Position numbers and translations under genes: made by a program. From Candidatus Dojkabacteria bacterium (lineage in GTDB: Bacteria; Patescibacteriota; Dojkabacteria; B142; JAFGFJ01), in assembly GCA_016931155.1 (NCBI GenBank), contig JAFGFJ010000006.1, positions 13,115 through 77,114 on the forward strand: a stretch of DNA of 64,000 nucleotides, read 5' to 3'. Each line of letters begins with the position of its first letter. Position 1 is the first letter of the stretch. The notes beneath the pieces were generated by a model that saw only the letters and a list, made by a program, of their open reading frames with translations, was not told where the DNA came from and ran no database searches. Positions 3,669-56,976 of this stretch are shown in pieces.

Positions 3669-3977
3669 ATGACTTTCAAAGATATAGTCAGAAAATCAAT
3701 CCTTTTCGGTCTTGGAGCTTACCAAATAACCAAAGAAGAAGTGGAAGATTTCGTAAAGGATTTACAAAAAGATGAAACCATAACCCCTCAAGAGGGGAAG
3801 AAAATGATTCAGGAAATCGTAAAGGCTGCAGAAAAAAAGATGAAAAGGCCAAACGAAGAACTCAAAAAGAGTATGGAAAGAATCGTCAAGTCTGTGATAA
3901 ATGAATTAGGAGTAGCAACGAAAAAGGATATCGCAGCACTCAAAACAGAGATGAAGAAGCCCAGAAAGGTGAGATAA
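3669..3977 (+). CDS. hypothetical protein (phasin-like helical protein)
   Basis: 102-aa lysine/glutamate-rich helical ORF with weak resemblance to phasin/granule-associated proteins. Confidence 0.4.
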   Translation: MTFKDIVRKSILFGLGAYQITKEEVEDFVKDLQKDETITPQEGKKMIQEIVKAAEKKMKRPNEELKKSMERIVKSVINELGVATKKDIAALKTEMKKPRKVR

Positions 3978-4161
3978 AGGTTGCTATTTGCGAAAAAAAT
4001 GTTATAATCTCCCCGTGCTAGATCAGAGTGTCCAATTTAGTCTTAGTAATTGATAAGAGACGCAAAAATTTTCGGGTACTTTGGTCGGATAAGTTATGTT
4101 ATTCCTCTAGTGTAAATCCTCTAGTGTAGCAAATCCATATTTTAGTTAGTTTTAAGTTAAA

Positions 4162-4422
4162 ATGAATAATAAGTTATTTGTTGGTGGAATTGCATGGGCA
4201 ACCACAGAAGAAGGCCTTAAGGAGCTTTTCGGCCAGGTCGGTAATGTAGTTGAAGTTAAAATTATAGTTGACAGAATGACCGGTAAATCGAGAGGTTTCG
4301 GTTTTGTCACTATGGAAACCGAAGAGGAAGCTGAAAAAGCTATTAAAGAGTTTAATGGCAAGGATCTTGACGGTAGAGCTCTCGTTGTAAACGCAGCAAA
4401 GCCACAGGAGAATAGACAATAA
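4162..4422 (+). CDS. RRM-type RNA-binding protein
   Basis: RNP2-like LFVGGI and RNP1-like RGFGFVTM motifs; the 86-aa size is typical for bacterial RRM proteins. Confidence 0.9.
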   Translation: MNNKLFVGGIAWATTEEGLKELFGQVGNVVEVKIIVDRMTGKSRGFGFVTMETEEEAEKAIKEFNGKDLDGRALVVNAAKPQENRQ

Positions 4423-4438
4423 AGTCTCTTTAGAAAAA

Positions 4439-4462
4439 GGGGCTCCTCGGAGTCCCTTTTTT
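4439..4462 (+). terminator. Rho-independent terminator after the RRM gene
   Basis: GC-rich hairpin GGGGCTCC-TC-GGAGTCCC followed by TTTTTT, directly after the stop codon. Confidence 0.6.
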
Positions 4463-4626
4463 GTCGGGAAAATTACGAAGTTATTGTTGATGTCTTTTGA
4501 AATGTCCTCCGGGATTGATTATGGCTCATTCTTACTCCAGTTAAGATCAAAAAACTGCTTGAACTGACCGGATTGTTATTTTTGGACTGTTTATTTGGAA
4601 CTCATTTATCCTTTCCTTCTTTCCTT

Positions 4627-5415
4627 TCACTTCTCTCCCAAACTCTCCCTTTTTTCTCTTTCCTTCTGTTTCTTCTCTTTTTTTCCTTCTCCTCCAAGCT
4701 GACCGTACATTTTTTCAAATCTTCTTGTTTTGCGGGCAAGAAAACTTACTCCAAGAGCCGTAACAGCCGCTATTCCCGCAAGGCCAAGGAGATGTACTGC
4801 AAACTTACTCACTGGCAATGATATCCTTCTATCCGAAACCCTTATCTTAACAGGCAGAATTTTATATCTTCCCCCAATTCTAATCACTCTTTTAACAAAA
4901 TCCGCATCTTCTCCAACACTTATTGACTCAGAAAATCCACCTGCCATTTCAAAAACTCTTTTCCAGACGATCATACAGGCACCACACTCTGCAAGAACAT
5001 TTTTAGTGTAATAACCAAATTTTTTGAGCAAGTGCCAGCCCTTGAAATATAGAAAATTACGTAACTTCTTCCTCTCTGCCTCTATCTTACAGGTTGCAAT
5101 ATGGTATTTGCCTCTAACAAACATTGGGATTGCCCTTTCAAAAAAGTCGTTCGGGAGAACAACATCCGCATCGAGAAAAACAAGAATATCTGTTTTCGCA
5201 TGCCTTGCACCGAGGTTTCTTCCCCTGCCAATTCGTCCATCATCAACACCCCTTACAACTTTTGCCCCAAGTCTTTTTGCTACAACACCTGTACCATCCG
5301 TAGACTTATCGGCAACAATGATCTGATTCGGTTCAGTTGTTTGAGCTTTTAGGTTTAAAAGAAGCCTTTTGATATTCTGCTGCTCATTTTTTGTTGGAAT
5401 TACAACTGAAAACAT
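4627..5415 (-). CDS. family 2 glycosyltransferase (Dpm1/GtrB-like) with a C-terminal TM helix
   Basis: MFSVVIPTKNEQQNI...IIVADKSTDGT...DADV: GT-A fold motifs including the DxD-like DAD. Confidence 0.8.
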   Translation of the reverse strand: MFSVVIPTKNEQQNIKRLLLNLKAQTTEPNQIIVADKSTDGTGVVAKRLGAKVVRGVDDGRIGRGRNLGARHAKTDILVFLDADVVLPNDFFERAIPMFVRGKYHIATCKIEAERKKLRNFLYFKGWHLLKKFGYYTKNVLAECGACMIVWKRVFEMAGGFSESISVGEDADFVKRVIRIGGRYKILPVKIRVSDRRISLPVSKFAVHLLGLAGIAAVTALGVSFLARKTRRFEKMYGQLGGEGKKEKKQKEREKRESLGEK

Positions 5416-5423
5416 GAGATAAA

Positions 5424-6158
5424 TTATTTTCCTCCTCCAGTCTCACCATACATTTTTTCAAACTTGTGCATGTTTTTTCTGAGCATATTTATTCCCACAA
5501 CGCTTACCGCAAACATACCAGCTAAACCGATAAGCTGTACAGCCAGTTTTCTCATGGGTCTTCTAAACCTCCTGTCCGAAGTAATCACAGTCAAGGGAAG
5601 AACTTTGAACCTGCCACCTGCTTTCACTGCCCTCCTTATAAAATCGGAATCCTCCCCGACACTTATCTTCTCGGAAAATCCGCATATTTTTGTGAACAGA
5701 TCTTTTTTGACCAAAAGACATATCCCGGACTCCGCCAGCACCTTTTTTGTAACTGAACCAAATCTTTTTAACGCATTCCAACTATTGAAATATAGATAGT
5801 TTACAATTCTTTTTCTGTCGGCTCTCAAGTAACAGGTAGCAATGTCCAGCTTTTTTTGATGGAAAATTCTAAGGGCATCGGCAAAAAAACCTTCCGGGAT
5901 GAAAACATCTGCATCTATGAAAAAAAATAGGTCTGTTTTCGCATATCTTGCACCATTGTTCCTGCCCTTTCCAATAAAACCATCATCCGCTCCCTCAACA
6001 ACTTTAGCTCCATACTCTTTTGCAATTTCAGCTGTCCTGTCTGTGGATTTATCAGCAACTATTATCTCATCAGGCTGAACACCTTGAGATATTATACTTT
6101 TGAGGAGCCTCTCAATAAGCTCCTCTTCGTTTTTTGTCGGGACAATTACGGAAAACAT
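5424..6158 (-). CDS. family 2 glycosyltransferase; tandem paralog of 4627..5415
   Basis: MFSVIVPTKNEEELI...IIVADKSTDRT...IDADV. It is collinear with and about 55-60% identical by eye to the adjacent GT2. Confidence 0.8.
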   Translation of the reverse strand: MFSVIVPTKNEEELIERLLKSIISQGVQPDEIIVADKSTDRTAEIAKEYGAKVVEGADDGFIGKGRNNGARYAKTDLFFFIDADVFIPEGFFADALRIFHQKKLDIATCYLRADRKRIVNYLYFNSWNALKRFGSVTKKVLAESGICLLVKKDLFTKICGFSEKISVGEDSDFIRRAVKAGGRFKVLPLTVITSDRRFRRPMRKLAVQLIGLAGMFAVSVVGINMLRKNMHKFEKMYGETGGGK

Positions 6159-8207: not shown

Positions 8208-8584
8208 ATAGCCTTTTCTTCAATCTGATTATCGGATAATTTATTAATACGCAAATACATATCTTCAGATAAATTAACTAAGTTTTAAACCAAAAATCCA
8301 GGCTTCTGTCCTGAACCATCTCAATATTTTAGTTCCTTTTTATCGAAGAAAAATCCAGTCTCAGCCTCATTGCCAAAGTATAACTAGATATACTAATTAA
8401 GTGTCTTGTTCTGTATATTCAAAATTATGAGAGGAAATGGTGGAGCAAGCTGGAAGAAGTTATGAACTACTTCAAAACACAGTCATTCTCCTTGCCTATT
8501 ATGGCATATAAGAATCTCTGACTGTCCGTTGAACACTCAAGAATGGAAACACAAATGCGTGAATACTTGGTATAATGTATACAG

Positions 8585-8851
8585 ATGAATAACCAACAAA
8601 AACTACAAAACATTATTAAAGAAAAACCCTATTTAGCCTGGGACACAAGACAATTCGACAAATTATCAACAGAAAGCATTGTAGAGAAAATCTTAAATTA
8701 CGGTCACTGGGAGGAGTATATGAAAGTGGAAGAAATAATAGGACTAAAAGAGGTCAGCCGCATATTTGATAAAATGAAAAATAGAAAAAGAGTAAATTTA
8801 AGGCCGCAAGTCGTAAACTATTTCAGTAAATACTTCAAAAAATATGCATGA
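8585..8851 (+). CDS. hypothetical small protein, putative cognate antitoxin of the downstream nucleotidyltransferase
   Basis: 88-aa ORF overlapping the downstream gene start by 8 nt; this operonic coupling is typical of TA pairs. Confidence 0.4.
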   Translation: MNNQQKLQNIIKEKPYLAWDTRQFDKLSTESIVEKILNYGHWEEYMKVEEIIGLKEVSRIFDKMKNRKRVNLRPQVVNYFSKYFKKYA

Positions 8852-9455
8852 GGAAATTCTCTCGGATGAACAAATAAAGATATTACCTACCCTGAAAGGT
8901 TTTTCCGGAAAGTTTGGACTTGTAGGTGGCACTGCTATAGCACTTTACCTGGGACACAGAAGATCTATAGATTTTGATCTTTTCTCTCAGGAAGAATTTA
9001 ATAACGATAATATTAAAAATACACTCAGAGAAGGATTTAATAATTTAAGTGTACTGGTAGATTATAAGGGGGAACTTACACTGGTAATAAATGGAGTTAA
9101 GGTGACATTTTACAAATTCCCTTTCAAAATAGCTTTCACAAAAGATATAAGTGGAATAATTAAGACACCTGACCTATTGACACTTGCTGCAATGAAATCA
9201 CTTGCTTTAGGGGGAAGAGGCAAATGGAAGGACTATATTGATCTCTACTTTATTTTCCAAAAATATTCTCTGTCTGAAGTAATTGAAAAGGCAAAAGACT
9301 TATTTTCAGAACAATTCAATTCTAAATTGATCAGAGAACAGCTTGCTTATTTCAAAGATATCGATTATTCGGAAAAGATTGACTACTTGCCAGGATTTCA
9401 AGTGGATGATCAATTAGTTAAAGATAAACTTACAGAAATAAGTCTGGAGAAATAA
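8844..9455 (+). CDS. nucleotidyltransferase AbiEii/AbiGii (DUF1814) toxin-family protein
   Basis: N-terminal FGLVGGTAIALYLGHRRSIDFDLFS matches the GG[ST]A...HR.S.D.D nucleotidyltransferase signature of AbiEii-type toxins. Confidence 0.6.
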   Translation: MHEEILSDEQIKILPTLKGFSGKFGLVGGTAIALYLGHRRSIDFDLFSQEEFNNDNIKNTLREGFNNLSVLVDYKGELTLVINGVKVTFYKFPFKIAFTKDISGIIKTPDLLTLAAMKSLALGGRGKWKDYIDLYFIFQKYSLSEVIEKAKDLFSEQFNSKLIREQLAYFKDIDYSEKIDYLPGFQVDDQLVKDKLTEISLEK

Positions 9456-9619
9456 GTTTTCTAAACTCTAAGAAATCGTTACAACTGCCTGTTTTTCCGG
9501 ATCCACTAATAATATAGATCATAAGTTTGTTATATTTTCTTTATCAAGGAATTTCAATAAAAATGGTCCTAGCAAAATGGATATTAGATGACTTTAAGAA
9601 ATTAATATCTTGTTTTTTC

Positions 9620-10243
9620 CTAAACTGATTCAAAGCCCTGCAAATGGTTATGTGTATCAAACTCTATTACCTTAAGTTTATCTCCGTATTCCAACATCGT
9701 ATACCCCCCTTCTGCTATTGTTGAATCCATAATTTCCTCACCAGAGGGTCTATAACTTTCATCAATTCGATAAATTAAATTTCCAATAAGTCCACCATGT
9801 GTAGAAATTAAAATATTTTCCAGGCTTTCTTTTTTCAATTCTTCAAAAAAGCATATACATCATCGAGAATTTGTTTAAGCGATTTATTGGTCTCTGGAGA
9901 GACAAACATTGGGTCAATTAACATCTTTCTTTGCAAATCTTTTCTGTATTCTTTAGGCTTAGAATAATCAATATATGCATATATTTCTGCCAGAGCATTC
10001 ACCGTTTTGATTTCTCCTAGATTTAATTACTTCTAACTATTTCAGCACTATGAATTGCACGGGGAAAAGGACTCGAAAAATGAAAGGTAAATTACAAAGC
10101 TCAGGAAATCTTTTATTCAGGATCTCAGCCAGTTTCTGAATTTGGATTATTCCAAACTTTGAAAGAGTTACTCCCCTCTTCACACTAAAGTCGGTGGACT
10201 CAACTTCCTGTTTTTCACCATGACGAAAAAGAAATATTTTCAT
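9620..10243 (-). pseudogene. histidine phosphatase (phosphoglycerate mutase family) gene disrupted by frameshifts
   Basis: The N-terminal MKIFLFRHGE (RHG catalytic motif) is at 10243..10037 and ends in a premature stop. The middle segment (~10030-9842) translates in a different frame as ...EIYAYIDYSKPKEYRKDLQRKMLIDPMFVSPETNKSLKQILDDVYAF. The C-terminal ...ILISTHGGLIGNLI is at 9838..9620 in a third frame. Confidence 0.6.
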
Positions 10244-10290
10244 AAAAACTTGTTAAAGACTTTTTATTATACTGAAAACGACTAAAGAGG

Positions 10291-10309
10291 AAATGGTGGA
10301 GATGGGGGG
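10291..10309. repeat. left direct repeat (att-like) AAATGGTGGAGATGGGGGG, a partial duplicate of the ssrA 3' terminus
   Basis: 15/15 nt identical plus 3 further matching G's to 18566..18584. On the minus strand this reads CCC(C)CCATCTCCACCATTT, i.e. the last 16 nt of the tmRNA plus 3 nt. Confidence 0.6.
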
Positions 10310-10794
10310 CTCGTTTGCGGGCGGGATTATTTCTGAACTGGAAAAACTGTTACTGATCGTAAAGAATCCTTTACAAGTAGCTCGTACTGCTTAATCATAC
10401 AAAATTACCCTAACTATATGCAATGCTTTGATTGAAAAGCAAATAAAATAAATGTAAGGGAATGAACATTGATAATTTAATGGACTAATCTATAAGATAT
10501 CGAATCATTGAAATATCTAATCAAAATGTTATACTCTTTTTGTAGATGCTGATTAAATGTAAAAGTTTCTATCCGAAAGTAGTTCCTAGCTACTTCCTTT
10601 TTTTACCTGCATCGCTGCGTTTTTTTCTCCAACGACCATTTTTATTTCTATCTCTGGGTTGTGTACCACCCCCTTGCTCGGGGACATATGGACCTCTACC
10701 CAATCTTCTATCTGCCATCCTTATCACCTCCTTTCGAGATTAATTTCAGCACCTACAAACAGGGTACACTCCCTGTTTGGATTCAATTTCAATG

Positions 10795-11748
10795 CTATTT
10801 TAACTTTATATCAAGAATCCTTTTCACCTTATCCTGCCACCCTTTAGTATGTAATACACGATTATACGTTTCATTGTTCCTACGAAGTAATTCAGTTCTT
10901 GAAAGTTGGCTAAGCTTTACCCAATCTGAATAGAGCACATAGATTGCGTTTCCATAGTTTTGATTTTCGAAGACCACCAAGTCTTTGTTAATTACTGCTC
11001 CAAAATAGTTCCCAAAACCTGTCCTACCATAAATGTATTTTTTCGGTTTAAGCTTACCCATAAAATCTAACCTCTCTTTTGTAGCCTTTGTAGCATCAAT
11101 ATCTGAAGCCAAATTTTGCCCACTCATTACTTTCTTGACAAAGTCTTCTCTTTTCTCCGGTGGGAAAATCTCCCAATCAACTTGCTGTATCTTAGTGTAA
11201 TCAATTTTATCATCACTTCCCCTTAAATCTGAACGACCTGTTGATTCTTGTAGAAGGTTAATAGCGAAAAAGATTTCATCAGTATCATCGTGAGGAATAG
11301 GATTAGCTAATGAGAATTCGAATAATAGTGAATTATTTTTAATCTGTTTAATTTTCATTCTATGCCCATGTGCTGGCTCAATTTCTCTTTGGTATCGCTT
11401 TTTATTCCAAACGATTGTATGTGTCCCATTCGAAGCATCTCCCCAGTTAGGAGCTTCTACAGATATAGTATAATCTTCTTTTGGAAGGTCTTTACGTATG
11501 ATTTCTTTCTCATAAAGATTGAATTTGGTAAATCTTCCAATTATACCTGGGATAACCTCATCAGGATATGTCACTTTACCATCTTGTATCTTTATACCAA
11601 GATGTTTATAAACTCCATTTTCTATATCATCCTGTCTAAAGAGTTTTAATGAAAATACTTGAACATTTTCCTTCGAAGGAATTTCGTCAAGCTTTATTTG
11701 TAAATGTTTTGGCATATTTATATAGTATTTTTTCCACTTGTTTTTCAT
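10795..11748 (-). CDS. hypothetical protein, candidate toxin partner of the upstream HTH-Panacea gene
   Basis: 317-aa ORF on the same strand, 168 bp downstream of the Panacea-domain gene. No recognisable domain. Confidence 0.4.
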   Translation of the reverse strand: MKNKWKKYYINMPKHLQIKLDEIPSKENVQVFSLKLFRQDDIENGVYKHLGIKIQDGKVTYPDEVIPGIIGRFTKFNLYEKEIIRKDLPKEDYTISVEAPNWGDASNGTHTIVWNKKRYQREIEPAHGHRMKIKQIKNNSLLFEFSLANPIPHDDTDEIFFAINLLQESTGRSDLRGSDDKIDYTKIQQVDWEIFPPEKREDFVKKVMSGQNLASDIDATKATKERLDFMGKLKPKKYIYGRTGFGNYFGAVINKDLVVFENQNYGNAIYVLYSDWVKLSQLSRTELLRRNNETYNRVLHTKGWQDKVKRILDIKLK

Positions 11749-11915
11749 TGTAATCTATTAATAATAAATATAAATCTATAGCAAGAAGGTGTAAAACTTC
11801 CCATTCTATAATGATTTGACCTGGAAGTGGAAACTGTTATAATGAGGTGTAAAGTGTTCGTTACGAACAGAAAGCATACCTTCCAGGTGTGCTTTTTTTT
11901 AGGCTTCATTCATTC

Positions 11916-12611
11916 TTAAAACGGTAACAAATTAAGTAATTTATATTCTTTCTTCATATCATCTTCTGAAATAATTTTATTCGTTCTTTTCATAGCATTT
12001 TTCCAAGGTAACTCTTTGTGAGATTTCGCTCTAAGTTGATATGCTGAGTAATAACCAAGTTTTTCCAATACAGTATCTATTATTTTTTTTGATTGAGAAT
12101 CAAGCTCTTCATATGTTTTATCAATCGGTTCGTTGATTACATTTGCTACAAAATGTTTATATGAGTCATATAATTCGCGGACTACTGGCCCGTGATCCCA
12201 AGATTCAAGATTTTCCTTAAATAATGGGTACCCCCTCATTCCTAGATTGTACATTTGGACATAATAGATTAATTTATTCAGCTTCATGTTTGTTAGATCA
12301 TAATAAGATTCGTTTGATTTCTTTTCAAAATTGAAGATACGTTTCATTTGTTCAATGATGTACTTTGCGACATCTAAAACTGAGTATTGCTTTAGATTGT
12401 TTAATTTTGAATCTTCAGAGTTAATAAATTCTATATCAAGACCTGTAGCTGATAAGAATCTAAATAGAGTTTTACTACTTACACCAGTTTCACCACGCTC
12501 AATTCTCGCAATAGTAGACTGCGGTACTCCCATTCTTTCAGCAAGGTCTGTTTGCGATAAACCTAATCGCATTCTATATTCTTGAATTTTTTCAACTATT
12601 TCGTCTCTCAT
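11916..12611 (-). CDS. XRE-family HTH fused to a Panacea (DUF4065/SocA-like) domain; PanA-type antitoxin-like protein
   Basis: N-terminal LSQTDLAERMGVPQSTIARIERGE is an XRE HTH. C-terminal MKLNKLIYYVQMYNLGMRGYPLFKENLESWDHGPVVRELYDSYKHF matches the DUF4065/Panacea core (KLQKLLYYAQ...W.HGPV...Y). Confidence 0.65.
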   Translation of the reverse strand: MRDEIVEKIQEYRMRLGLSQTDLAERMGVPQSTIARIERGETGVSSKTLFRFLSATGLDIEFINSEDSKLNNLKQYSVLDVAKYIIEQMKRIFNFEKKSNESYYDLTNMKLNKLIYYVQMYNLGMRGYPLFKENLESWDHGPVVRELYDSYKHFVANVINEPIDKTYEELDSQSKKIIDTVLEKLGYYSAYQLRAKSHKELPWKNAMKRTNKIISEDDMKKEYKLLNLLPF

Positions 12612-12722
12612 AAAGGAAATCTAATAAATAACTGCTCAATAATACGTTAAAAAAATGTTTATGTCAAAAAAACATAATTAATTATGCGAAAGAGATATAA
12701 GAGAATAATTAGATAGAAAGAT

Positions 12723-13970
12723 TTATAAAATAGCCATCTGTTCCTCTACGAACTCTATTGGCATAGAAACGTATTTATCTTTATCATACGTTTTATTCAA
12801 CATAGAAACCGCAGCCTGTCCAATATGATAACCCAAATTCACTGGGACGGCGTTGCCAATTTGTTTGTACTGAGAGGTTGTTGATCCCTCGAATACCCAT
12901 TCATCTGGGAATGTTTGAATCCTAGCATATTCTCTAACAGTAAGAGGTCGAGTTTCTTCTGGATGGCATCTTTCTGTTTGCTTCTGAGCAGGGCTAGTTG
13001 TAAGAGTTAAACTAGGTTCATCCCATGATAATCTCCGAGCCATCCCAGTTTTTCCTCCGCTGTGATAATAGCTTTTTCCCATATATTCTTTTTGTACTTC
13101 CTCTGGTAAATCCCTCCAGTAACCACCAGGAGGTATCTGTTTCATAATTTCATATTTCTTTTCTGGGTATGACTGTCCTGAAGATTGTGGAACATTCTCA
13201 AGAGCCTCTCGAAGGGATACAAAATAATTTTTTTCTTTAGGAAACAAAATAGGAGTATCAAGATCATTCCTAACACCAATAATAATCAATCGTTCACGTT
13301 TTTGAGGAACGTCTAGATATTGAGATCGAAGTATTTTATAAGCGACTTTATATCCTAGTTCCTCTAATGTGTTAATCATAGTTGATAATGTACGTCCATT
13401 ATCATGCTTGTGTAGTCCTCGAACATTTTCACCTATAGCTATTTTAGGTTTAACTTCCTTCACACAACGTGCAAACTCAAAAAATAGAGTTCCTCTAGTA
13501 TCTTCAAATCCGCCCTTTTTCCCTGCATAACTGAATGATTGACATGGGAAACCGCCTTCAACGATATCTGCTGACATTTCCGTAAAATCAACATTCGCAA
13601 TATCATCTTCAATAACATTCCAATTTGGACGATTTGTTCTCAAAGTAGCTGCTGCATTTTTATCTATTTCTACTAGTAATTTATGTTCTAATCCAGCATT
13701 TTCTAAACCTAGTGCAGTCCCCCCAGCTCCCGAAAATAGATCTATAACAGTATATCCGGAGCTATTATCGGCTTTATGAATTTTATATCTATTATTGGAG
13801 TCATCTCCATCCAACTTTTTTATCAATCTATCGATTTCATCTAAATTAAAAACACGATAATTATTATCGGAACGAGAAGCCTTGATCAATCCTTTTTTCT
13901 CCCAACGACGTATAGTATCGGTTGATACATTTAATTTTTGAGCTGCATCGTGTACGGTAATTTTCTTCAT
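12723..13970 (-). CDS. DNA (cytosine-5)-methyltransferase with an N-terminal MerR-type HTH domain
   Basis: Motif I DLFSGAGG, motif IV GFPCQSFS, motif VI ENV, motif X QIGNAV. The N-terminal ~60 aa (LNVSTDTIRRWEKKGLIKA) is a MerR-like HTH. Confidence 0.9.
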   Translation of the reverse strand: MKKITVHDAAQKLNVSTDTIRRWEKKGLIKASRSDNNYRVFNLDEIDRLIKKLDGDDSNNRYKIHKADNSSGYTVIDLFSGAGGTALGLENAGLEHKLLVEIDKNAAATLRTNRPNWNVIEDDIANVDFTEMSADIVEGGFPCQSFSYAGKKGGFEDTRGTLFFEFARCVKEVKPKIAIGENVRGLHKHDNGRTLSTMINTLEELGYKVAYKILRSQYLDVPQKRERLIIIGVRNDLDTPILFPKEKNYFVSLREALENVPQSSGQSYPEKKYEIMKQIPPGGYWRDLPEEVQKEYMGKSYYHSGGKTGMARRLSWDEPSLTLTTSPAQKQTERCHPEETRPLTVREYARIQTFPDEWVFEGSTTSQYKQIGNAVPVNLGYHIGQAAVSMLNKTYDKDKYVSMPIEFVEEQMAIL

Positions 13971-14070
13971 GATTATAGTTTAATGGTAACCTTTACATAA
14001 TGCAAGGGTTACAGCGATTATTCTTTCTATTATGCTTGTTGTATACTTATAGACAGTTTAAGTTATTTTT

Positions 14071-14787
14071 ATGACAGATAAACAAAAAAAAGAAACTCTT
14101 AATAAAGCAAAGAAGTTTTTCAAAGCCTCTATATCGAACAGTCATTTAGGTAATACTGAAAAGCTAGTTACAGTATCGGAATTCAACGTTAATCCTTTTT
14201 TGGTTAAATACCTTGCGCAATTTTTTACCGGAAATACAAAAGCTGAAAGTATAGCTAAGGTTCTTATTTATCCGCGTATTTTGGGAACATCGATTAATAC
14301 AACATTCGGAAGTAGGTTACAAGCTTTCATCAGTGAGGTTTTAGAGGGATATGGTTCCACAACAGCAGGAATTGACATCGAATTTATTGATGCTTTAGAC
14401 AAAAGAAAAAAGTATTGTCAGGTTAAAGCAGGCTCAAATACGATAAACAAAGATGATGTAAAAACTATAAAAGATCATTTCAAATCTGTTTATAGTTTAG
14501 CAAGAACAAATAATCTGAAGGTGACTCTTGATGATATGGTGGTTGGAGTTTTATACGGAACTGAATCCGAATTGAGTTATCACTATAAGAAATTACAAGA
14601 GAATTATCCTGTACACGTTGGGAGTGAGTTTTGGTTTAGGGTAACAGGAGATAAGCATTTCTATATAGACTTAATTGACGCCTTTAGCGAAGTCGCAAAA
14701 GAAATAAATGGTTTTAAAGTTGTAAACAAAGTAGTAAAAGAACTCTCAGAAGATATTGAAAGAAATTACTCTGGATTATTACTATAG
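14071..14787 (+). CDS. putative Type II restriction endonuclease (PD-(D/E)xK-like), divergent from the methyltransferase
   Basis: 238-aa ORF transcribed divergently from the C5-MTase with a 100-bp spacer. GIDIEFID...CQVK resembles a D...ExK catalytic motif. Confidence 0.45.
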   Translation: MTDKQKKETLNKAKKFFKASISNSHLGNTEKLVTVSEFNVNPFLVKYLAQFFTGNTKAESIAKVLIYPRILGTSINTTFGSRLQAFISEVLEGYGSTTAGIDIEFIDALDKRKKYCQVKAGSNTINKDDVKTIKDHFKSVYSLARTNNLKVTLDDMVVGVLYGTESELSYHYKKLQENYPVHVGSEFWFRVTGDKHFYIDLIDAFSEVAKEINGFKVVNKVVKELSEDIERNYSGLLL

Positions 14788-14793
14788 TAGTAT

Positions 14794-15390
14794 TTATTCC
14801 AACATCCCCGCAGCTAATCCTGCAGCATCTGGAAATGACATATTTACGTCTTCTGCATACATTTCAATCATAAAATCTAATATGTCCATTTCAGTTACGC
14901 CTGTTTTACTTTCTTTTCTAAGTGCTATGAGAGCACTTCCTGCTTTTGAATAATTTTCTTCGTTTATCTCCAGTGCATAAAGAGTCATTGCTTCATCAAG
15001 CTTCTCTTTTATTTCTGACTGTGAGTAGCCACCTTCAAAAGCAACTTCCATCATTTCTAATGCAGATGTTTCTTCCTGATCTTTACTATCATTATTAACC
15101 TCTGGTTCAGCCACTTCTGAATCAGTTGGGGTTATTGAGACTTGAGAGTTATCTGTTTTTGTATTTGACTCGGATACCCCCTCCTGAAATCCATCTGAAA
15201 AGCTTCCTAAAAGACCTGTGGCAATGCAATAAATGCATAATAATAGTAACGCTCCTATTACAAGGATGATTAGAACATTTTTGTTCTTCATAAGATAAAC
15301 AATAAAAAATAAACTAGCGGGGAAACTAAAAATGGCTCCCCATTCACCGATAGTCCTTTCGGAACTATCTACTAACCTTTCGGCTAGCAA
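14794..15390 (-). CDS. hypothetical membrane protein with an acidic low-complexity N-terminal region
   Basis: A central TM segment and C-terminal hydrophobic stretches; no family recognised. Confidence 0.4.
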   Translation of the reverse strand: MLAERLVDSSERTIGEWGAIFSFPASLFFIVYLMKNKNVLIILVIGALLLLCIYCIATGLLGSFSDGFQEGVSESNTKTDNSQVSITPTDSEVAEPEVNNDSKDQEETSALEMMEVAFEGGYSQSEIKEKLDEAMTLYALEINEENYSKAGSALIALRKESKTGVTEMDILDFMIEMYAEDVNMSFPDAAGLAAGMLE

Positions 15391-15479
15391 CTACCGCAAA
15401 GTAATGGTGAGATGGGAGAGCCATCTCTATCTTTGCGGTAGATTTTCATACCATGCCACTAAAAAGTGGTTTAGGTACT

Positions 15480-15960
15480 TAATGAATTATAATACTTTTC
15501 TTATGTTTGCTAAAAGTTTTTTGTATTTTCAAATAGGTATTGAAAGAAAGTATAAAAATTTTGGTATCCTTTTAGTACCTCTTTAGTACCCTTACTATAC
15601 AACATGGAAATCGATGAATACTCCTGGTGGATAAGGCAGTAAAGTCGTCGAGGAGACAAAGAAGATAACTAATAAATTTGGTATCGTTTTGGTATCCTAT
15701 TCGCCTGAAAATATCATCGTAATAGCTATTATCAAGACTATCGGAACCAAATGTATATTTTTGTTTTTTGGTACGGTTTTGGTCTTCTTTTGGTCAGGTG
15801 TTTTTAGGATGTATTCCTTGCGTTTACCTTATACAGAAGATTGTTTTAGGTATAAAAAGGGTAAATTCAGGGTACAAAAAAGGTGGAAATTAGGTGGATT
15901 TAAGGTGGATAAAAAAGGTACAAATTGGGTACATTTAAGGTGCATGAAAAGTGAATTTGG
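15480..15960. repeat. noncoding region with several families of short direct repeats (iteron-like)
   Basis: TTTGGTATCC/TTTAGTACC at 15551-15591. TTTGGTATCG/TTTTGGTATCC at 15676-15700. TTTTGGTACGG/TTTTGGTCTTC/TTTTGGTCAGG at 15765-15800. Three AGGTGGA units at exact 11-bp spacing at 15881-15913. GGTACA x3 at 15870-15945. There is no ORF over 60 aa. Confidence 0.6.
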
Positions 15961-15972
15961 TATAATTTTCGT

Positions 15973-16740
15973 ATGAGTAAAACGGAGGATCTATATCGAG
16001 AGATCATAAATACCATAAATCAATACGATTCTAAGCTTAAGAAATCTTTACTTATAGCACCTGCAAATTATGAAGATTGGCTTCGAGATTCATTTCCCCG
16101 TATAGTTACAACCGATAGGACTTTTACACAGGGAGAGGAAGCTATCTATGAATTTGAGAGATATCTTAAAGACAATTCGTTAAATATCATTGAATATGAA
16201 TACCTAGAGAAGAATTCGGAGCTTATTCCAGATGTAATTAATAGTTTATTTAAAGCTGGTGTATTACATAAAAAGAATAATTTGATCGTGTCTCCAGTGG
16301 AGCTGGGCGTTGGAAGTGGATTTGAATTTATTAAACAGGGTCATTTTAAGTTCTATCTGTATGACATAAATTGGAAGTATTTGAAAAAGAAAAAAATTCC
16401 GAAAATGGTTGATGTGGCAGCTGAACTTTTCGATATGGTTCTTACTGAATCTGGAGATTTAATTTATAAAGATAATGAAGTGAAATTTCAAGTTTCTGGC
16501 CAAAAGGGACAGTTTGCACTATTAAAGGCTTTGATGATACTACAAAAAAGACAAAATGACAGTAATATGCAAATATCAGAGTTTCTTGTCGTTAAAGAAA
16601 TGCAGAAATACAGTAATACTGACTTAGATTTTATTTCTCTTGTTAATGACATAAATAAGAAACTAAGCAAGAATAAATTTCCTTATAAAATTTCCCATCC
16701 TCAAAAAGCCTTTATTATTAAGCCATCAGATCAAAAATAA
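15973..16740 (+). CDS. hypothetical protein (island cargo, immediately downstream of the iteron region)
   Basis: 255-aa ORF with no recognised family. Confidence 0.4.
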   Translation: MSKTEDLYREIINTINQYDSKLKKSLLIAPANYEDWLRDSFPRIVTTDRTFTQGEEAIYEFERYLKDNSLNIIEYEYLEKNSELIPDVINSLFKAGVLHKKNNLIVSPVELGVGSGFEFIKQGHFKFYLYDINWKYLKKKKIPKMVDVAAELFDMVLTESGDLIYKDNEVKFQVSGQKGQFALLKALMILQKRQNDSNMQISEFLVVKEMQKYSNTDLDFISLVNDINKKLSKNKFPYKISHPQKAFIIKPSDQK

Positions 16741-16809
16741 GGAAGTGAGTTCCTTATTTCAGGAAGCATTGTCCATGTTCGATAATATAACAAACATCAA
16801 ATTTGTTAT

Positions 16810-16995
16810 ATGTCGAAAGATTTTCTAATTGAAGAAAAACCACTAATCACTATAAAAGAGGCTAGAAAAATTCTAGGTTCTAGATACACTGGTTTGTCTG
16901 ATAAAGAAATCGAAAATAAAATTGCTAGCCTAACGCGTCTTGCAAAGATACTTTTCAAGAATTTAAACCGTCAACGCGATTCTCCCACCAAATAA
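16810..16995 (+). CDS. hypothetical small protein upstream of the integrase (possible directionality/regulatory factor)
   Basis: 61-aa basic ORF directly upstream of the serine recombinase. Confidence 0.3.
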   Translation: MSKDFLIEEKPLITIKEARKILGSRYTGLSDKEIENKIASLTRLAKILFKNLNRQRDSPTK

Positions 16996-17051
16996 TCACT
17001 TTCGTTTGTTATTGAAACTTTATAAAATATTTTAGTTATTAATTATTTACT

Positions 17052-18638
17052 ATGGAAATAAAAAACAACGCATATGATGGTATTGGTTATATAAAAGTAT
17101 CATCCAAAAAACAATTTATTGAAGGTGTAAGTATGGAAGTCCAAAAGAAGAAGGTGACAAAACTTTTGGAAGATCATGGTTGCAAAAAAATAAAAATTTT
17201 CAATGATGATGGTATTAGTGGTCGTGATGTTGAAAAAAGGGATGCTTTCCAAGAAGCCCTGAAAATAGCTACGAAAACAAAGGTTAAATACTTTGCTACA
17301 TATGATACTTCTAGATTTGCTCGTAATACAGAACAGTCCATCCACTATTTCAAAAAACTTGTTAATCAGGGGACTGAATTTATTTGCGCAACGGGGAAAT
17401 TTGATAATTCTCCCAAAGGAACGTTAATGTTTAGTTTACTTGCCTCTTTTGATGATTATAGAAGTTCAAAAGATGGCGAAAAAATTAGAGCTTCGTTTCG
17501 TGACCTGAAACTTCAAGGGAGGTTCCCACATTGTGCTCCTCCTGGTTACGATAACATAAGGATTAACAAAAAAGCTGATATTATTCCAAATCAGGAGATG
17601 GCACCTATTCTAGCTCGTGCGTTGAAAAAGTTTGCGTATGGGGAGCTAATATCACAAGCAGATTTCTCTGATTATTTGTATGAAAATAATTTCGAGCATA
17701 AATGGAAACATTCAGCTATCAAAAAGAAAGCTAATCAGATGGCAGATAGGATTCTACATAATCCTTTTTATTGTGGTTATTTTGTAGATAAAGAAACCGG
17801 AAAAAGAATAAATCATGTATACAGACCCATTATCACAGAGGATGAGTTCAATCTAATTCAGGGGAGACTAGATAAGAGAAGCCGTGGCAGTATGATTAAA
17901 CATAAGGTGAGAGAGGAGTATCCTCTAAGGGGGGCTTTGTATTGTAGTGAATGCGGAAGTAGAGTTCGAAGTTATCCAAATAAAAAAAAAGATCGCAAAC
18001 ATATTCTCTATTATTACGACTGTTCCAAAAAGGGCTGCTGCAAAGGTACTCAGACGTATTTGATTCATGAATCATTAGAGCATATTTTAGGTAAATTGAA
18101 GATCCAGCCAGAGGAGCTGGATCTTTTTTATATTGTTATGCAGAGAGTTATTAAGAACGAGGAAGAAGAACTCTATTTATATGCCAATAAGCTTGATTCT
18201 GACATACACAAACTGAATAGAGAGAAAGAAATTGTTTTTGAAAATTTTAGTAAATGTAAGACAGATATTATGAGAGAAGAACTGGAGTTTAGGTACAATA
18301 AATTGGTAAATGAAATTGAAAATAAAGAAATAGAAAAAGAAAATAATAACCCTAATATAAAAAGCGGGCGGATCTTAGATGAAGCTATGGAATATATTGA
18401 AAGTCCTTTGCAGACTTGGGGTTCGTTAGTTATAAATTACAAGATTCAATACCGAGATTGGCTATTTCCAACCGGTTTAGAATATATCTCGGATAAAGGA
18501 TTGCGGGCGCACGAGATTAATAATGTTTACAATACTTTACAAAGCTTTGAGAGCAAAAAGCCTCAAATGGTGGAGATGGCGGGAATCGAACCCGCGTCCA
18601 TTAAACACAACCTAAAACAGTATTACAAGCTTCGTTGA
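17052..18638 (+). CDS. large serine recombinase (serine integrase)
   Basis: N-terminal resolvase catalytic domain (GYIKVSSKKQ with the serine nucleophile, DTSRFARN), a recombinase domain and a Cys-rich zinc ribbon (CSECGSRV...CSKKGCC). The 3' end overlaps the ssrA 3' end convergently by ~70 nt. Confidence 0.85.
   Translation: MEIKNNAYDGIGYIKVSSKKQFIEGVSMEVQKKKVTKLLEDHGCKKIKIFNDDGISGRDVEKRDAFQEALKIATKTKVKYFATYDTSRFARNTEQSIHYFKKLVNQGTEFICATGKFDNSPKGTLMFSLLASFDDYRSSKDGEKIRASFRDLKLQGRFPHCAPPGYDNIRINKKADIIPNQEMAPILARALKKFAYGELISQADFSDYLYENNFEHKWKHSAIKKKANQMADRILHNPFYCGYFVDKETGKRINHVYRPIITEDEFNLIQGRLDKRSRGSMIKHKVREEYPLRGALYCSECGSRVRSYPNKKKDRKHILYYYDCSKKGCCKGTQTYLIHESLEHILGKLKIQPEELDLFYIVMQRVIKNEEEELYLYANKLDSDIHKLNREKEIVFENFSKCKTDIMREELEFRYNKLVNEIENKEIEKENNNPNIKSGRILDEAMEYIESPLQTWGSLVINYKIQYRDWLFPTGLEYISDKGLRAHEINNVYNTLQSFESKKPQMVEMAGIEPASIKHNLKQYYKLR
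18566..18584. repeat. right direct repeat (att-like) AAATGGTGGAGATGGCGGG at the 3' end of ssrA
   Basis: Matches 10291..10309 (15/15 plus GGG, with one C/G difference). Confidence 0.6.
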
Positions 18639-19039
18639 TTTGTTTTAACGAATAAATTATAAAAATCAACAAAAACAATTTATCCGCGCTTTCAAACATT
18701 CTTCTCTTGTTACAAAGAAAGCATTTGTAATAGATGCATCCTGACTAAGTGACGCCTGTAAAACCCCATCAGGAGAGAATTTTGCAGACGGATGATAATC
18801 TCCGATAAATCGAAAGATTATGCAACGGCAAGATTAAGAGCAGGACTATTAAAGAAACCAGCAATTGCTGATTCAACCTTATCTCTCAATCTGCTGAAAA
18901 AATTTGTTTTGGCGTTTGTTGTTCGTCGTTCGTGGACCTTTGCGGCACCCGCGAACCAGATGAGTTATTTACGAAACAGCATCTGATGTTTCGGCCTGCT
19001 GCATTAAGCAGTTATTCAATGTCGAGACCATACATCCCC
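18568..19039 (-). ncRNA. ssrA: tmRNA (ssrA)
   Basis: Minus-strand 3' end TGGACGCGGGTTCGATTCCCGCCATCTCCACCA is near-identical in form to canonical tmRNA 3' ends (GGAC + T-arm + acceptor + ACCA). The 5' end GGGGATG-TATGGTCTCGAC pairs with the 3' acceptor strand CATCTCC and matches the GGGG...GGNUUCGAC 5' motif. An internal reading frame ends ...NSPALNLAVA-TAA (stop at 18820..18818), resembling ssrA tag C-termini. Confidence 0.75.
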
Positions 19040-26616: not shown

Positions 26617-26864
26617 TGATATCGTTGCAATACTTAATATAATTATTTTCTTTGTTTAAAGATAGATTAACATTTGGTTTTTCTGCTTTTTCAAAGGAGG
26701 AAGTATCATTCATTAGTATATTATTAAAAAGTTGTTCAAGATTTAGAGTACCATGTGGGGTACAAAAATACAAGAAAAAATGGATAAACTTATAATGCTA
26801 AAAAGTGCTTGACAAAACAGGTATAAATAGGTTTAAATTCAGTATTAAATTTAGTACCACACCA

Positions 26865-27098
26865 ATGAAAACTATATCACTACAAGACCTAAAAAGGAGA
26901 GGTTCCAAAGCTATCCCAAACAATGAGGTCTCTTATCTGATCGTAAATTCAAAGCCTAAATCCGCAATAGTACCATACGAGGAATATGAAGCATTGATAG
27001 AGGCTATTGAGGAGCTTGAAGACATCAAAGATTATGAGGCACGGAAGAACGAAAAATCTACCGACTGGAAAAAAGCCATTGAAGAAATAGAAGAATGA
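26865..27098 (+). CDS. Phd/YefM-family antitoxin
   Basis: MKTISLQDLKRRGSKAIP...SAIVPYEEYEALIEAIEELED is a typical Phd/YefM fold sequence. The start was moved to the internal ATG. The stop overlaps the RelE start. Confidence 0.65.
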   Translation: MKTISLQDLKRRGSKAIPNNEVSYLIVNSKPKSAIVPYEEYEALIEAIEELEDIKDYEARKNEKSTDWKKAIEEIEE

Positions 27099-27358
27099 AA
27101 TACCCCATAAAATTCACACGATCTGCTATCAAGGAAGCAAAAAAGCTACCCATCTCGATCTGGAAAAGAATAAAACTGGAGATATACGAACTCTCAGATA
27201 GCCCAATCCCCTCGTCATCAAAGAGGCTCAATGGCTATAAAAACGTATACCGTATACGAATCGGTTCGTATAGAGTAATCTACGAGCTAAAACACGAGAT
27301 TAAGATAGTATTAATTGTGAAAATAGGACACAGAAGAGACATCTACAGAAATTTATGA
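27095..27358 (+). CDS. RelE/ParE-family toxin
   Basis: 87 aa; KRLNGYKNVYRIRIGSYRVIYELKHEIKIVLIVKIGHRRDIY matches the RelE/ParE core. It overlaps the antitoxin gene by 4 nt (ATGA). Confidence 0.7.
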   Translation: MKYPIKFTRSAIKEAKKLPISIWKRIKLEIYELSDSPIPSSSKRLNGYKNVYRIRIGSYRVIYELKHEIKIVLIVKIGHRRDIYRNL

Positions 27359-45162: not shown

Positions 45163-45252
<90 letters not shown>

Positions 45253-50899: not shown

Positions 50900-50989
50900 G
50901 GAGAGGTGGCTGAGTGGTCGAAAGCGCCGCTCTCGAAAAGCGGTTCCCGGGTAACCGGGACGCGGGTTCGAATCCCGCCCTCTCCGCCA
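50900..50989 (+). tRNA. tRNA-Ser (anticodon CGA)
   Basis: Type II tRNA with a long variable arm, anticodon loop CTCGAAA, T-arm GCGGGTTCGAATCCCGC, GCCA. Confidence 0.85.
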
Positions 50990-51225
50990 ATTGCTACGAC
51001 TGGTATTTCCGAGATACCGTCTCATTTTTGTCACATTTTCACATCTGATTCCAGAGTTGAATTTGATGCAGCTTATAAAGCAGCGAATATTTTATATTTA
51101 AGACCCATTGCCCGCACTACTTGAATCCGATTATGCACATACTGAGTAAATTTTCCATTGATTCTTAAGCAGAGAAATATATCAATATAAACACGATAAC
51201 TATACAAGATAATGCTATAATTCCC

Positions 51226-56720: not shown

Positions 56721-56888
56721 AACTCAAGCAGTTACATTTAAATTGTCCAATTCCTGGAAAGTTACTATGTCTTATGCTAGTACAAAACCGAGTACTAAGT
56801 AAAGAACATTGGCGTTGAGATTGGTTCTAAAATTTGCAAAGAAATTGGTTATATGATTAACCACAAGAATAGTTGCAAGATTGGTGGT

Positions 56889-56976
56889 GAGATTAGTCTT
56901 AAGATTGGTGGTGAGATTAGTCTTAAGATCGGTGGTGAGATTAGTCTTAAGATCGGTGGTGAGATTCAATCGCTAC
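56889..56976. repeat. 24-bp tandem repeat GATTGGTGGTGAGATTAGTCTTAA, ~3.7 copies
   Basis: Three near-identical units (T/C at position 4) plus a partial fourth. It sits ~170 bp upstream of the membrane protein gene and abuts the trxB stop. Confidence 0.9.

Follow-up and report, generated by a model that had tools for sequence, protein, structure and literature searches.

Islands inserted at ssrA, the gene of transfer-messenger RNA (tmRNA), are known from Dehalococcoides, where they encode DsiB, a serine recombinase of ~540 amino acids (aa) that is a homologue of CcrB (McMurdie et al. 2011, BMC Genomics 12:287, PMC3146451). In these islands, the ssrA repeat is 20 bp long and differs from ssrA by a conserved mismatch, tandem arrays occur, and the integrase open reading frame (ORF) crosses the attachment (att) site (PMC3146451); DsiB was suggested to be fully functional perhaps only on the circular element (McMurdie et al. 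2011, PMC3146451). Among tyrosine recombinases, the genes of phage Mx8 IntP and of the fusellovirus SSV integrase span attP (Tojo et al. 1996, cited in PMC4383910). The Islander study of 2014 knew tyrosine integrases alone as enzymes that target tRNA and tmRNA genes (tDNAs) (PMC4383910), and the TIGER survey (2020) listed 14 of 297 serine-integrase cases and requested proof. Here we analyzed a stretch of 64,000 nucleotides (nt) from Candidatus Dojkabacteria, a member of the candidate phyla radiation (CPR) (assembly GCA_016931155.1, contig JAFGFJ010000006.1, positions 13,115–77,114; hereafter the window), which contains a small element beside its ssrA gene. The element was very probably inserted by its own large serine recombinase (LSR) at the 3′ end of the single tmRNA gene of this bacterium, with attP located inside the LSR gene. 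The features on which this reading is based are as follows, in window coordinates:

10291–10309, plus strand: distal att copy, consisting of the same 15-bp core as the copy at ssrA (below), then G and GGG; outside DNA to the left, island to the right
16810–16995, plus strand: 61-aa protein directly upstream of the LSR, conserved at that position in 4 related loci (L001, L087, L088, and L090)
17052–18638, plus strand: LSR, 528 aa; Pfam Resolvase 79.6 bits, Recombinase 36.8 bits, and Zn_ribbon 23.6 bits; PHROG integrase (PHROG_95) 211 bits
18565–18583, plus strand: att copy at ssrA (attL in the sense of McMurdie et al.), consisting of AAATGGTGGAGATGG, then C and GGG; island DNA to the left, ssrA body to the right
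18568–19039, minus strand: ssrA, full length, 472 nt; Rfam RF00023 123.3 bits, E-value 1e-47, model positions 1–374 of 374

Comparison with described systems

The locus resembles the Dehalococcoides islands in that (i) an LSR of about 530–540 aa lies directly against ssrA, from which the repeat copy differs by a fixed mismatch; (ii) the integrase ORF crosses the att site and has its stop codon beyond the island, here at 18638, 71 nt into ssrA; (iii) the element is small and contains no phage or conjugation genes; and (iv) tandem accretion occurs downstream of ssrA there, and a possible third repeat copy is present here (described below). By contrast, the host there belongs to Chloroflexota and here to the CPR/Dojkabacteria, and the cargo consists of reductive dehalogenases there and of defense genes here. 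The small serine recombinase DsiA, RecF, ParB, Mom, and the embedded tRNA-like module are all absent from our element, in which the gene of a 61-aa helical protein lies ahead of that of the integrase; searches of the island ORFs with Pfam, PADLOC, PHROG, and NCBIfam gave no further Resolvase domain and no match to ParB, RecF, or Mom. A scan of viral contigs for the Dehalococcoides repeat gave 0 matches. None of the 150 nearest LSR clusters has a DsiB-like tail, and the relationship to DsiB is therefore distant at best. A preliminary description of this DNA considered a serine recombinase at ssrA to be unusual, which was overstated in view of the Dehalococcoides design published in 2011 (PMC3146451) and of 44 of the 70 relatives described below.

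The staphylococcal cassette chromosome (SCC) element SCCmec, with its recombinases CcrAB or CcrC, is likewise a non-conjugative cassette with a serine recombinase, and the conserved housekeeping gene whose 3′ end it occupies stays active; it has direct repeats of ~15 bp and allows tandem arrays. Its target, however, is the protein gene rlmH (orfX), whereas the target here is an RNA gene, and no CcrA partner is present here. The best curated NCBIfam match of our LSR is CcrB, at 79.3 bits against a cut-off of 900 bits; this score, together with the target being ssrA and not rlmH, rules out an SCC/Ccr recombinase identity.

Tyrosine-integrase islands (Islander class, P4-like) also target the ssrA 3′ end, which is restored by the copy on the element, and in these islands too the far end is recognizable by the displaced fragment, and the integrase gene lies beside the tDNA. 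The enzyme families are nevertheless unrelated, the serine recombinases making a concerted double-strand break at a central dinucleotide with no Holliday junction. Mx8 and SSV share with our element an attP inside the integrase gene, so that integration alters the C-terminal coding sequence; those enzymes are tyrosine recombinases, whereas here a serine clade is involved and the replacement tail is an antisense reading of the tmRNA or tRNA gene (collectively t(m)RNA). New at this locus are the CPR host, the conserved 61-aa partner, the cargo of restriction-modification and helix-turn-helix (HTH)-Panacea genes, a lysine at position 15 of the LSR, and a left flank that is not intact and contains an AbiE pair.

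The att repeats and the ssrA terminus

In the whole window, the core followed by [G/C]GGG has exactly 2 occurrences, those listed above. The 2 copies are 8,274 bp apart and share an exact core of 15 bp, or 19 bp with one mismatch (18/19). The preliminary description had recognized the 19-bp repeat at both ends, but its right-hand coordinates (18566–18584) were 1 nt too high. It had also identified the right copy, on the minus strand, as the last 16 nt of ssrA plus 3 nt; the Rfam gene ends agree with this, and the 3 additional nucleotides are TTT. The ssrA gene itself is undamaged, with acceptor stem, T-arm, and ACCA end all intact. The left copy was said to have no tmRNA body at its side, and indeed neither a tmRNA nor a T-arm lies alongside it, Rfam yielding a single tmRNA in the window. 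ARAGORN missed this tmRNA when run on the window, whereas the Rfam covariance model detects the full-length gene. At 472 nt, the gene exceeds the tmRNAs of 5 relatives by 50–75 nt, with an insertion of ~35 nt near the 5′ end and further insertions elsewhere; these extra insertions probably explain the ARAGORN miss.

Two or more matches to the repeat were found in 0 of 100 dinucleotide-preserving shuffles, even when 2 mismatches were allowed. Exact direct repeats of at least 15 nt number 17 in this AT-rich window against ~6 expected under a first-order Markov model. The significance of the repeat lies in its match to one specific site, the ssrA terminus, and not in the rarity of 15-mer repeats. 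The chance of 1e-4 to 1e-5 previously given for the 15-mer is appropriate if conditioned on the ssrA terminus and fails if unconditioned, because of the 17 repeats of that length or longer. Two further entries in the exact-repeat list lie elsewhere in the window: tRNA-Ser genes with identical 30-nt 3′ ends at 45222–45251 and 50961–50990, which form the second-longest exact repeat in the window, and a tandem repeat with a 24-nt period (GGTGGTGAGATTAGTCTTAAGAT…) at 56877–56966, which is probably a repetitive coding region.

From the flanks of the 2 copies, attB was reconstructed as …CTAAAGAGG-AAATGGTGGAGATGG-CGGGAATCGAACCC… and attP as …GCAAAAAGCCTC-AAATGGTGGAGATGG-GGGGCTCGTTTGCGG…, where the hyphens delimit the core. 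The corresponding junction sequences are

predicted attB junction: …CGACTAAAGAGGAAATGGTGGAGATGGCGGGAATCGAACC…
predicted attP junction: …GAGAGCAAAAAGCCTCAAATGGTGGAGATGGGGGGCTCGTTTGCGG…
alternative attB junction, built with the flank at 8430 (described below): …ATTATGAGAGGAAATGGTGGAGATGGCGGGAATCG…

Because the C/G mismatch lies just inside the 19-bp repeat and the sequences diverge just outside the core, the crossover would have taken place somewhere in the 15-bp core.

The large serine recombinase

At its 3′ end, the LSR gene passes through the att core and continues within ssrA, antisense to it. The catalytic domain (PF00239, 79.6 bits) covers residues 11–157, and Ser17 is aligned with the invariant nucleophilic serine (alignment A1). 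The Recombinase domain (PF07508) scores 36.8 bits, and the Zn-ribbon (PF13408), at 23.6 bits, falls just below the cut-off of 25.3 bits; the 4 cysteine residues of the Zn-ribbon (C298, C301, C324, and C329) are invariant in alignment A1. The 61-aa protein encoded directly upstream contains the motif KEARKLLG.KW..LSDEQLE and was modeled by AlphaFold2 as a helical hairpin of 2 helices, with a predicted local distance difference test score of 80. It is a natural candidate for a recombinase accessory or directionality factor, or for a regulator.

Related recombinases end in tmRNA and tRNA genes

A word-indexed search retrieved one good homologue of the LSR, P0001, with 38% identity. At its locus (L001, an unrelated metagenome contig), the LSR gene (3875–5446) ends inside a tmRNA gene on the opposite strand (5367–5763, minus strand, 122.6 bits). 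An exhaustive HMMER search gave 64 matches below 1e-30. The motif G[IFVL]EP was present within the last 45 residues in 84 of the 154 nearest clusters, mostly as (L/M)V(E)xxG(I/F)EP, a tail that reads as the antisense translation of an acceptor stem and T-loop.

We fetched 80 metagenome loci, which contained 70 LSR ORFs with a complete 3′ end. An ARAGORN gene on the opposite strand is overlapped or abutted by 39 of these 70 ORFs, or by 44 if 5 with tRNA-like tails are included. The targets among the 39 are tmRNA (10), tRNA-Met (10), tRNA-Arg (5), tRNA-Leu (4), tRNA-Glu (3), tRNA-Asn (2), tRNA-Pro (2), tRNA-Ala (2), and tRNA-Gln (1), that is, 29 tRNA genes in total and at least 9 target types overall. 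Because ARAGORN had missed the window tmRNA that Rfam detects, ARAGORN negatives were re-examined with Rfam at 17 loci. The 5 closest relatives with a complete 3′ end (L001, L086, L087, L088, and L090; 36%–38% identity) all end in a tmRNA gene. The tmRNA genes of these 5 relatives share a mean column identity of 68%, only those of L086 and L088 being alike; this divergence marks them as separate insertions in separate hosts. The 19-mer was also found in 58 IMG/VR contigs, none of which has a related recombinase. Most members in the sequence neighborhood of this LSR end inside a t(m)RNA gene, and we consider this family-level result more interesting than the locus itself. A search of the literature available to us found no later paper describing a broad clade of t(m)RNA-targeting serine integrases.

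Exchange of the recombinase C-terminus

The integrated LSR ORF, which reads ssrA antisense, ends with …QMVEMAGIEPASIKHNLKQYYKLR (…MVEMAGIEPAS…). In our reconstruction, the ORF of the circular form would instead read …QMVEMGGSFAGGIISELEKLLLIVKNPLQVARTA and comprise 538 aa. The sequence for this second tail is found at the distal att copy:

10293–10394, plus strand: would-be C-terminus of the circular-form LSR, open frame, …MVEMGGSFAGGIISELEKLLLIVKNPLQVARTA followed by a stop codon; a 33-codon ORF when integrated

The outer flank provides AAGAGG 2–3 nt before the core ATG (10286–10394), and as a result a separate ORF of 33 codons encodes exactly the circular-form tail.

A comparable tail occurs in another element. 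The ORF of P0008, on contig L085, crosses the core GTGGAGATGG and continues with …YPFANQIVSELSQLV…, in register with the reconstructed tail. Aligned with each other, the 2 tails score 40, whereas shuffled sequences reach a maximum of 30.4±3.3, and the DNA of L085 and that of the window share …C[CT]CGTTTGCG… at equal spacing from the core. Neither ARAGORN nor Rfam detected a t(m)RNA beside the P0008 ORF on L085. A helix with the pattern (W/F)Nx(I)IxE(L) is common to 15 non-tRNA tails, and a hidden Markov model (HMM) built from these 15 tails, with the window left out, ranked 10293–10349 in the correct frame second among 2,431 six-frame fragments, at just 6.4 bits.

At the level of sequence, we consider the exchange of tails to be real; its functional meaning is a proposal. 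We propose that the LSR belongs to a large, mainly metagenomic, and scarcely recognized radiation of serine integrases that target tmRNA and tRNA 3′ ends and carry attP in frame within their own gene, and that integration would exchange the conserved helix (W/F)Nx(I)IxE(L)xxL for a t(m)RNA-antisense tail, which would constitute a built-in switch of activity or directionality operating with the 61-aa partner. Taken as a whole, this proposal is rather unlikely to be correct; McMurdie et al. had considered such a switch for DsiB.

Extent, composition, and cargo of the element

The element comprises 10306–18564 plus one copy of the 15-bp core, 8,274 bp in all, and forms a small integrative element. 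The GC content of the interval is 0.335, compared with 0.372 for the remainder of the window. Its tetranucleotide distance is 0.212, compared with 0.077–0.169 for 70 windows of the same size elsewhere, and the most deviant windows of the entire 64 kb are those that span 8.5–19 kb. The compositional check that had been suggested for 10.3–18.6 kb therefore identifies the interval as the top outlier among 8.3-kb windows; the interval is foreign DNA. Its cargo is as follows:

10795–11748, minus strand: 317-aa protein of an uncharacterized, mobile-element-associated family; may be the effector or toxin that pairs with the Panacea protein
11916–12611, minus strand: protein with HTH_3 and SocA/Panacea domains (antitoxin-type); Pfam PF13274 73.7 bits and PF01381 56.6 bits
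12723–13970, minus strand: MerR-type HTH fused to a C5 cytosine DNA methyltransferase (type II); PF00145 298 bits, PADLOC MTase_II 422 bits
14071–14787, plus strand: type II restriction endonuclease of the EcoO109I family; PF14511 121.5 bits
14794–15291, minus strand: 165-aa predicted membrane protein (ORF list and Logan gene call), with weak family matches only; 198 aa if read from an upstream TTG
15349–15477, minus strand: LOOT RNA (Rfam RF03000), 78.4 bits against a gathering score of 46.4 bits
15553–15975: non-coding iteron-like block, with 11-nt-phased AGGTGGA/GGTAC units at 15865–15945 and 4 repeats of the TTTGGTAT type (repeat families D1–D5)
15973–16740, plus strand: 255-aa orphan protein directly downstream of the iterons

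The content reported in the preliminary description (a type II restriction-modification pair, an HTH-Panacea antitoxin, an iteron block, and an LSR that overlaps ssrA) was borne out by the Pfam and repeat searches. It had counted 2 defense modules, of which one is well supported. The genes of the methylase and the restriction endonuclease are divergent and 100 bp apart, and to judge by their domains they form a solid type II restriction-modification pair. A toxin-antitoxin or defense role is only plausible for the Panacea module, whose 317-aa partner is uncharacterized. The HTH-Panacea protein has a homologue with 41% identity in the island of L090.

The 317-aa protein belongs to a family of more than 216 members without a Pfam domain, and its structure was modeled with confidence and gave no fold match. 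One member of the family lies in Enterobacter between psu and int of a P4-like satellite, and others were seen in the psu-int region of P4-like satellites of Citrobacter and Salmonella (L166–L169), a region that we take to be a known defense hotspot. The same metagenome sample contains a copy with 57% identity (L170, 6001–6957) beside another HTH-Panacea gene. The contig in question (SRR13394437 contig 334824) carries a distant LSR (24% identity, with no t(m)RNA overlap), an AAA_25 protein, and a small resolvase in addition to the Panacea and 317-aa pair. The presence of the pair on that contig and on our island indicates that it moves between element types, and the 317-aa protein is a candidate for a new defense or toxin protein.

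The LOOT RNA lies ~58 nt upstream of the gene of the 165-aa membrane protein, on the same strand. A second LOOT RNA (51 bits) is found on L085 (11722–11848, plus strand), in an element with an LSR of the same family, beside a PycTM-like gene; such RNAs may recurrently travel with these CPR mobile elements. In the literature available to us, no text that describes this RNA was found. The 255-aa protein matched only itself in the database and gave no family matches in Pfam, PADLOC, PHROG, and NCBIfam; it might be a replication initiator or a regulator.

The left flank

The DNA to the left of the element had been regarded as core DNA with a histidine phosphatase gene, a view that the following features contradict:

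8430–8445, plus strand: third partial att-like copy, AGAGGAAATGGTGGAG, a 16-mer identical to 10286–10301 that holds the first 11 nt of the core
8446–10290: low-GC (0.326) segment with an 88-aa ORF upstream of the AbiEii toxin gene and a fragmented histidine-phosphatase pseudogene
8844–9455: AbiEii toxin gene, Pfam AbiEii 47 bits, outside the boundary of the element

The histidine-phosphatase frame is broken by several stop codons, and its N-terminal fragment, with 18.6 bits, does not reach the Pfam cut-off. Exact repeats of at least 16 nt number 9 in the window against 1.3 expected; the copy at 8430 is one of these and overlaps the att copy. The simplest reading is that 8446–10290 is an older, decayed insertion at the same site, with the copy at 8430 as its outer boundary. 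This reading is tentative because the segment contains no recombinase remnant. Elsewhere in the window, the Logan gene calls (L024) place a toxin-antitoxin pair, PhD/YefM-like and ParE, at about 26805–27358, downstream of the valyl-tRNA synthetase (ValRS) gene.

Discussion

The observations are accommodated by a mechanism in which the LSR of the element acts as its integrase and attP lies within the 3′ end of the LSR gene. An exchange between this attP and the end of ssrA (…CATCTCCACCA plus TTT) would set the LSR gene against ssrA, and the tmRNA sequence beyond the crossover, as far as the ACCA end, would now come from the element. ssrA would stay intact because these terminal nucleotides are identical to those of the host, and the core would be left duplicated at the far end, at 10291. 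Because attP lies inside the LSR gene, the C-terminus of the enzyme would be altered as a consequence: the integrated ORF would read into the antisense strand of ssrA, whereas on the circular form the LSR would end in a different, apparently conserved helix (…MVEMGGSFAGGIISELEKLL…). The product of the 61-aa gene would probably serve as a recombinase accessory or directionality factor. Four independent lines of evidence argue that, as first described, an island flanked by direct repeats has integrated at the 3′ end of ssrA: (i) the repeat is the ssrA terminus; (ii) the interval is a compositional outlier; (iii) the LSR ORF crosses the att core; and (iv) the LSRs of relatives end at divergent tmRNA genes.

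Several points weigh against this reading. Neither an empty site nor a circular junction was found, and the predicted attB 33-mer had 0 matches in the Joint Genome Institute (JGI) metagenomes. The nearest genomes are too distant for comparison, their ValRS being at most 48% identical (Dojkabacteria), and have no ssrA near ValRS. The organism is represented by one assembly, as 2 Logan contigs from one sample (SRR13394437), and the foreign appearance of the left flank makes the true ancestral attB flank uncertain. A second repeat, sought within flanks of up to 10 kb in 38 relatives, was almost entirely absent, and for this reason we do not generalize the core length. A dyad-symmetry scan of the reconstructed attP and attB found no center above background, the symmetry of attP being limited to the outer GCAAA/TTTGC pentamers about 18572–18573; we therefore claim no crossover dinucleotide. 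The score of the tail HMM lends the reconstructed tail weak support, and the lysine at position 15 may mean that the enzyme no longer works. A search for an alternative arrangement was likewise negative, and the 72-aa ORF of the flank was present on one contig only. The 2 Logan contigs (L024 at its start and L025 at its end) overlap by 24 nt only, at 18571–18594, inside the ssrA terminus and att core; the contigs could break here because the population is heterogeneous at the att site, or because other species have the same tmRNA end.

The lysine raises the question of whether the element is still mobile. The nucleophile motif of the LSR is YIKVSSKKQ, with Lys15 2 residues before the serine, where relatives have arginine (Y-x-R-x-S). 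At this position of the conserved catalytic arginine, equivalent to R8 of Tn3 resolvase, 147 of 150 homologues have arginine and none has lysine; the substitution bears on activity and not on homology. In Tn3 resolvase, R8K abolished resolution in vivo and reduced the cleavage rate to 0.0002x (PMC2794168, Table 2). The island may accordingly be a fossil, inserted by the LSR, then immobilized by an arginine-to-lysine change (of the AGA to AAA type), and now fixed and kept by its restriction-modification and toxin-antitoxin-like genes. Such a history, which would refine our interpretation of an LSR-mediated insertion at ssrA and not replace it, would also fit the failure to find an attB or attP junction and the neighboring segment 8446–10290, which resembles an earlier island already decayed. 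However, Tn3 resolvase is a small enzyme, from which the argument is carried over to an LSR; apart from this residue, the 528-codon ORF is undamaged and keeps the 4 Zn-ribbon cysteines and the other invariant residues; and heterogeneity at the att site, if that is what the Logan break means, would speak for continued movement. We regard the fossil history as a serious possibility, somewhat short of an even chance.

It is very improbable that there was no site-specific insertion at all, with a 15-mer match that arose by chance in AT-rich DNA and a low-GC block that is an ancestral variable region. The excess of direct repeats in the window and the lack of an empty site would be compatible with a coincidence, but the match is to the ssrA terminus specifically, covers 18 of 19 bases, and did not arise in any of the shuffles; the repeat coincides with the end of the integrase ORF and with a compositional boundary; and the same geometry recurs in independent hosts. 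We dismiss as even less probable the insertion of the island by a tyrosine integrase that was later lost, with the LSR as mere cargo or as a resolvase: an identity block of 15–19 bp at a tDNA 3′ end is typical of tyrosine integrases, the sole family known for tDNAs in the Islander paper (PMC4383910), but the serine recombinases of Dehalococcoides and of SCC type likewise leave repeats of 15–20 bp, the LSR ORF physically spans the att core in an arrangement that 39–44 relatives share at their t(m)RNA targets, and no tyrosine integrase (Phage_integrase) in or near the island is listed among the genes and Pfam domains of 2723–34016 of the window.

The architecture described here for an LSR-mediated insertion at ssrA is not new in kind, having been published for Dehalococcoides in 2011; it now appears in a new phylum, with different accessory genes and in a possibly inactivated state. 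The locus itself is an ordinary example of this design, and possibly a dead one. Together with its relatives, it shows that the Dehalococcoides precedent is no oddity, and the design looks far commoner in metagenomes than textbooks imply. Island finders that are limited to tyrosine integrases at tDNAs will miss such elements, and serine integrases with conserved natural RNA-gene targets are attractive as tools for genome engineering. For the CPR bacteria, the element bears on how organisms with very small genomes gain defense genes.

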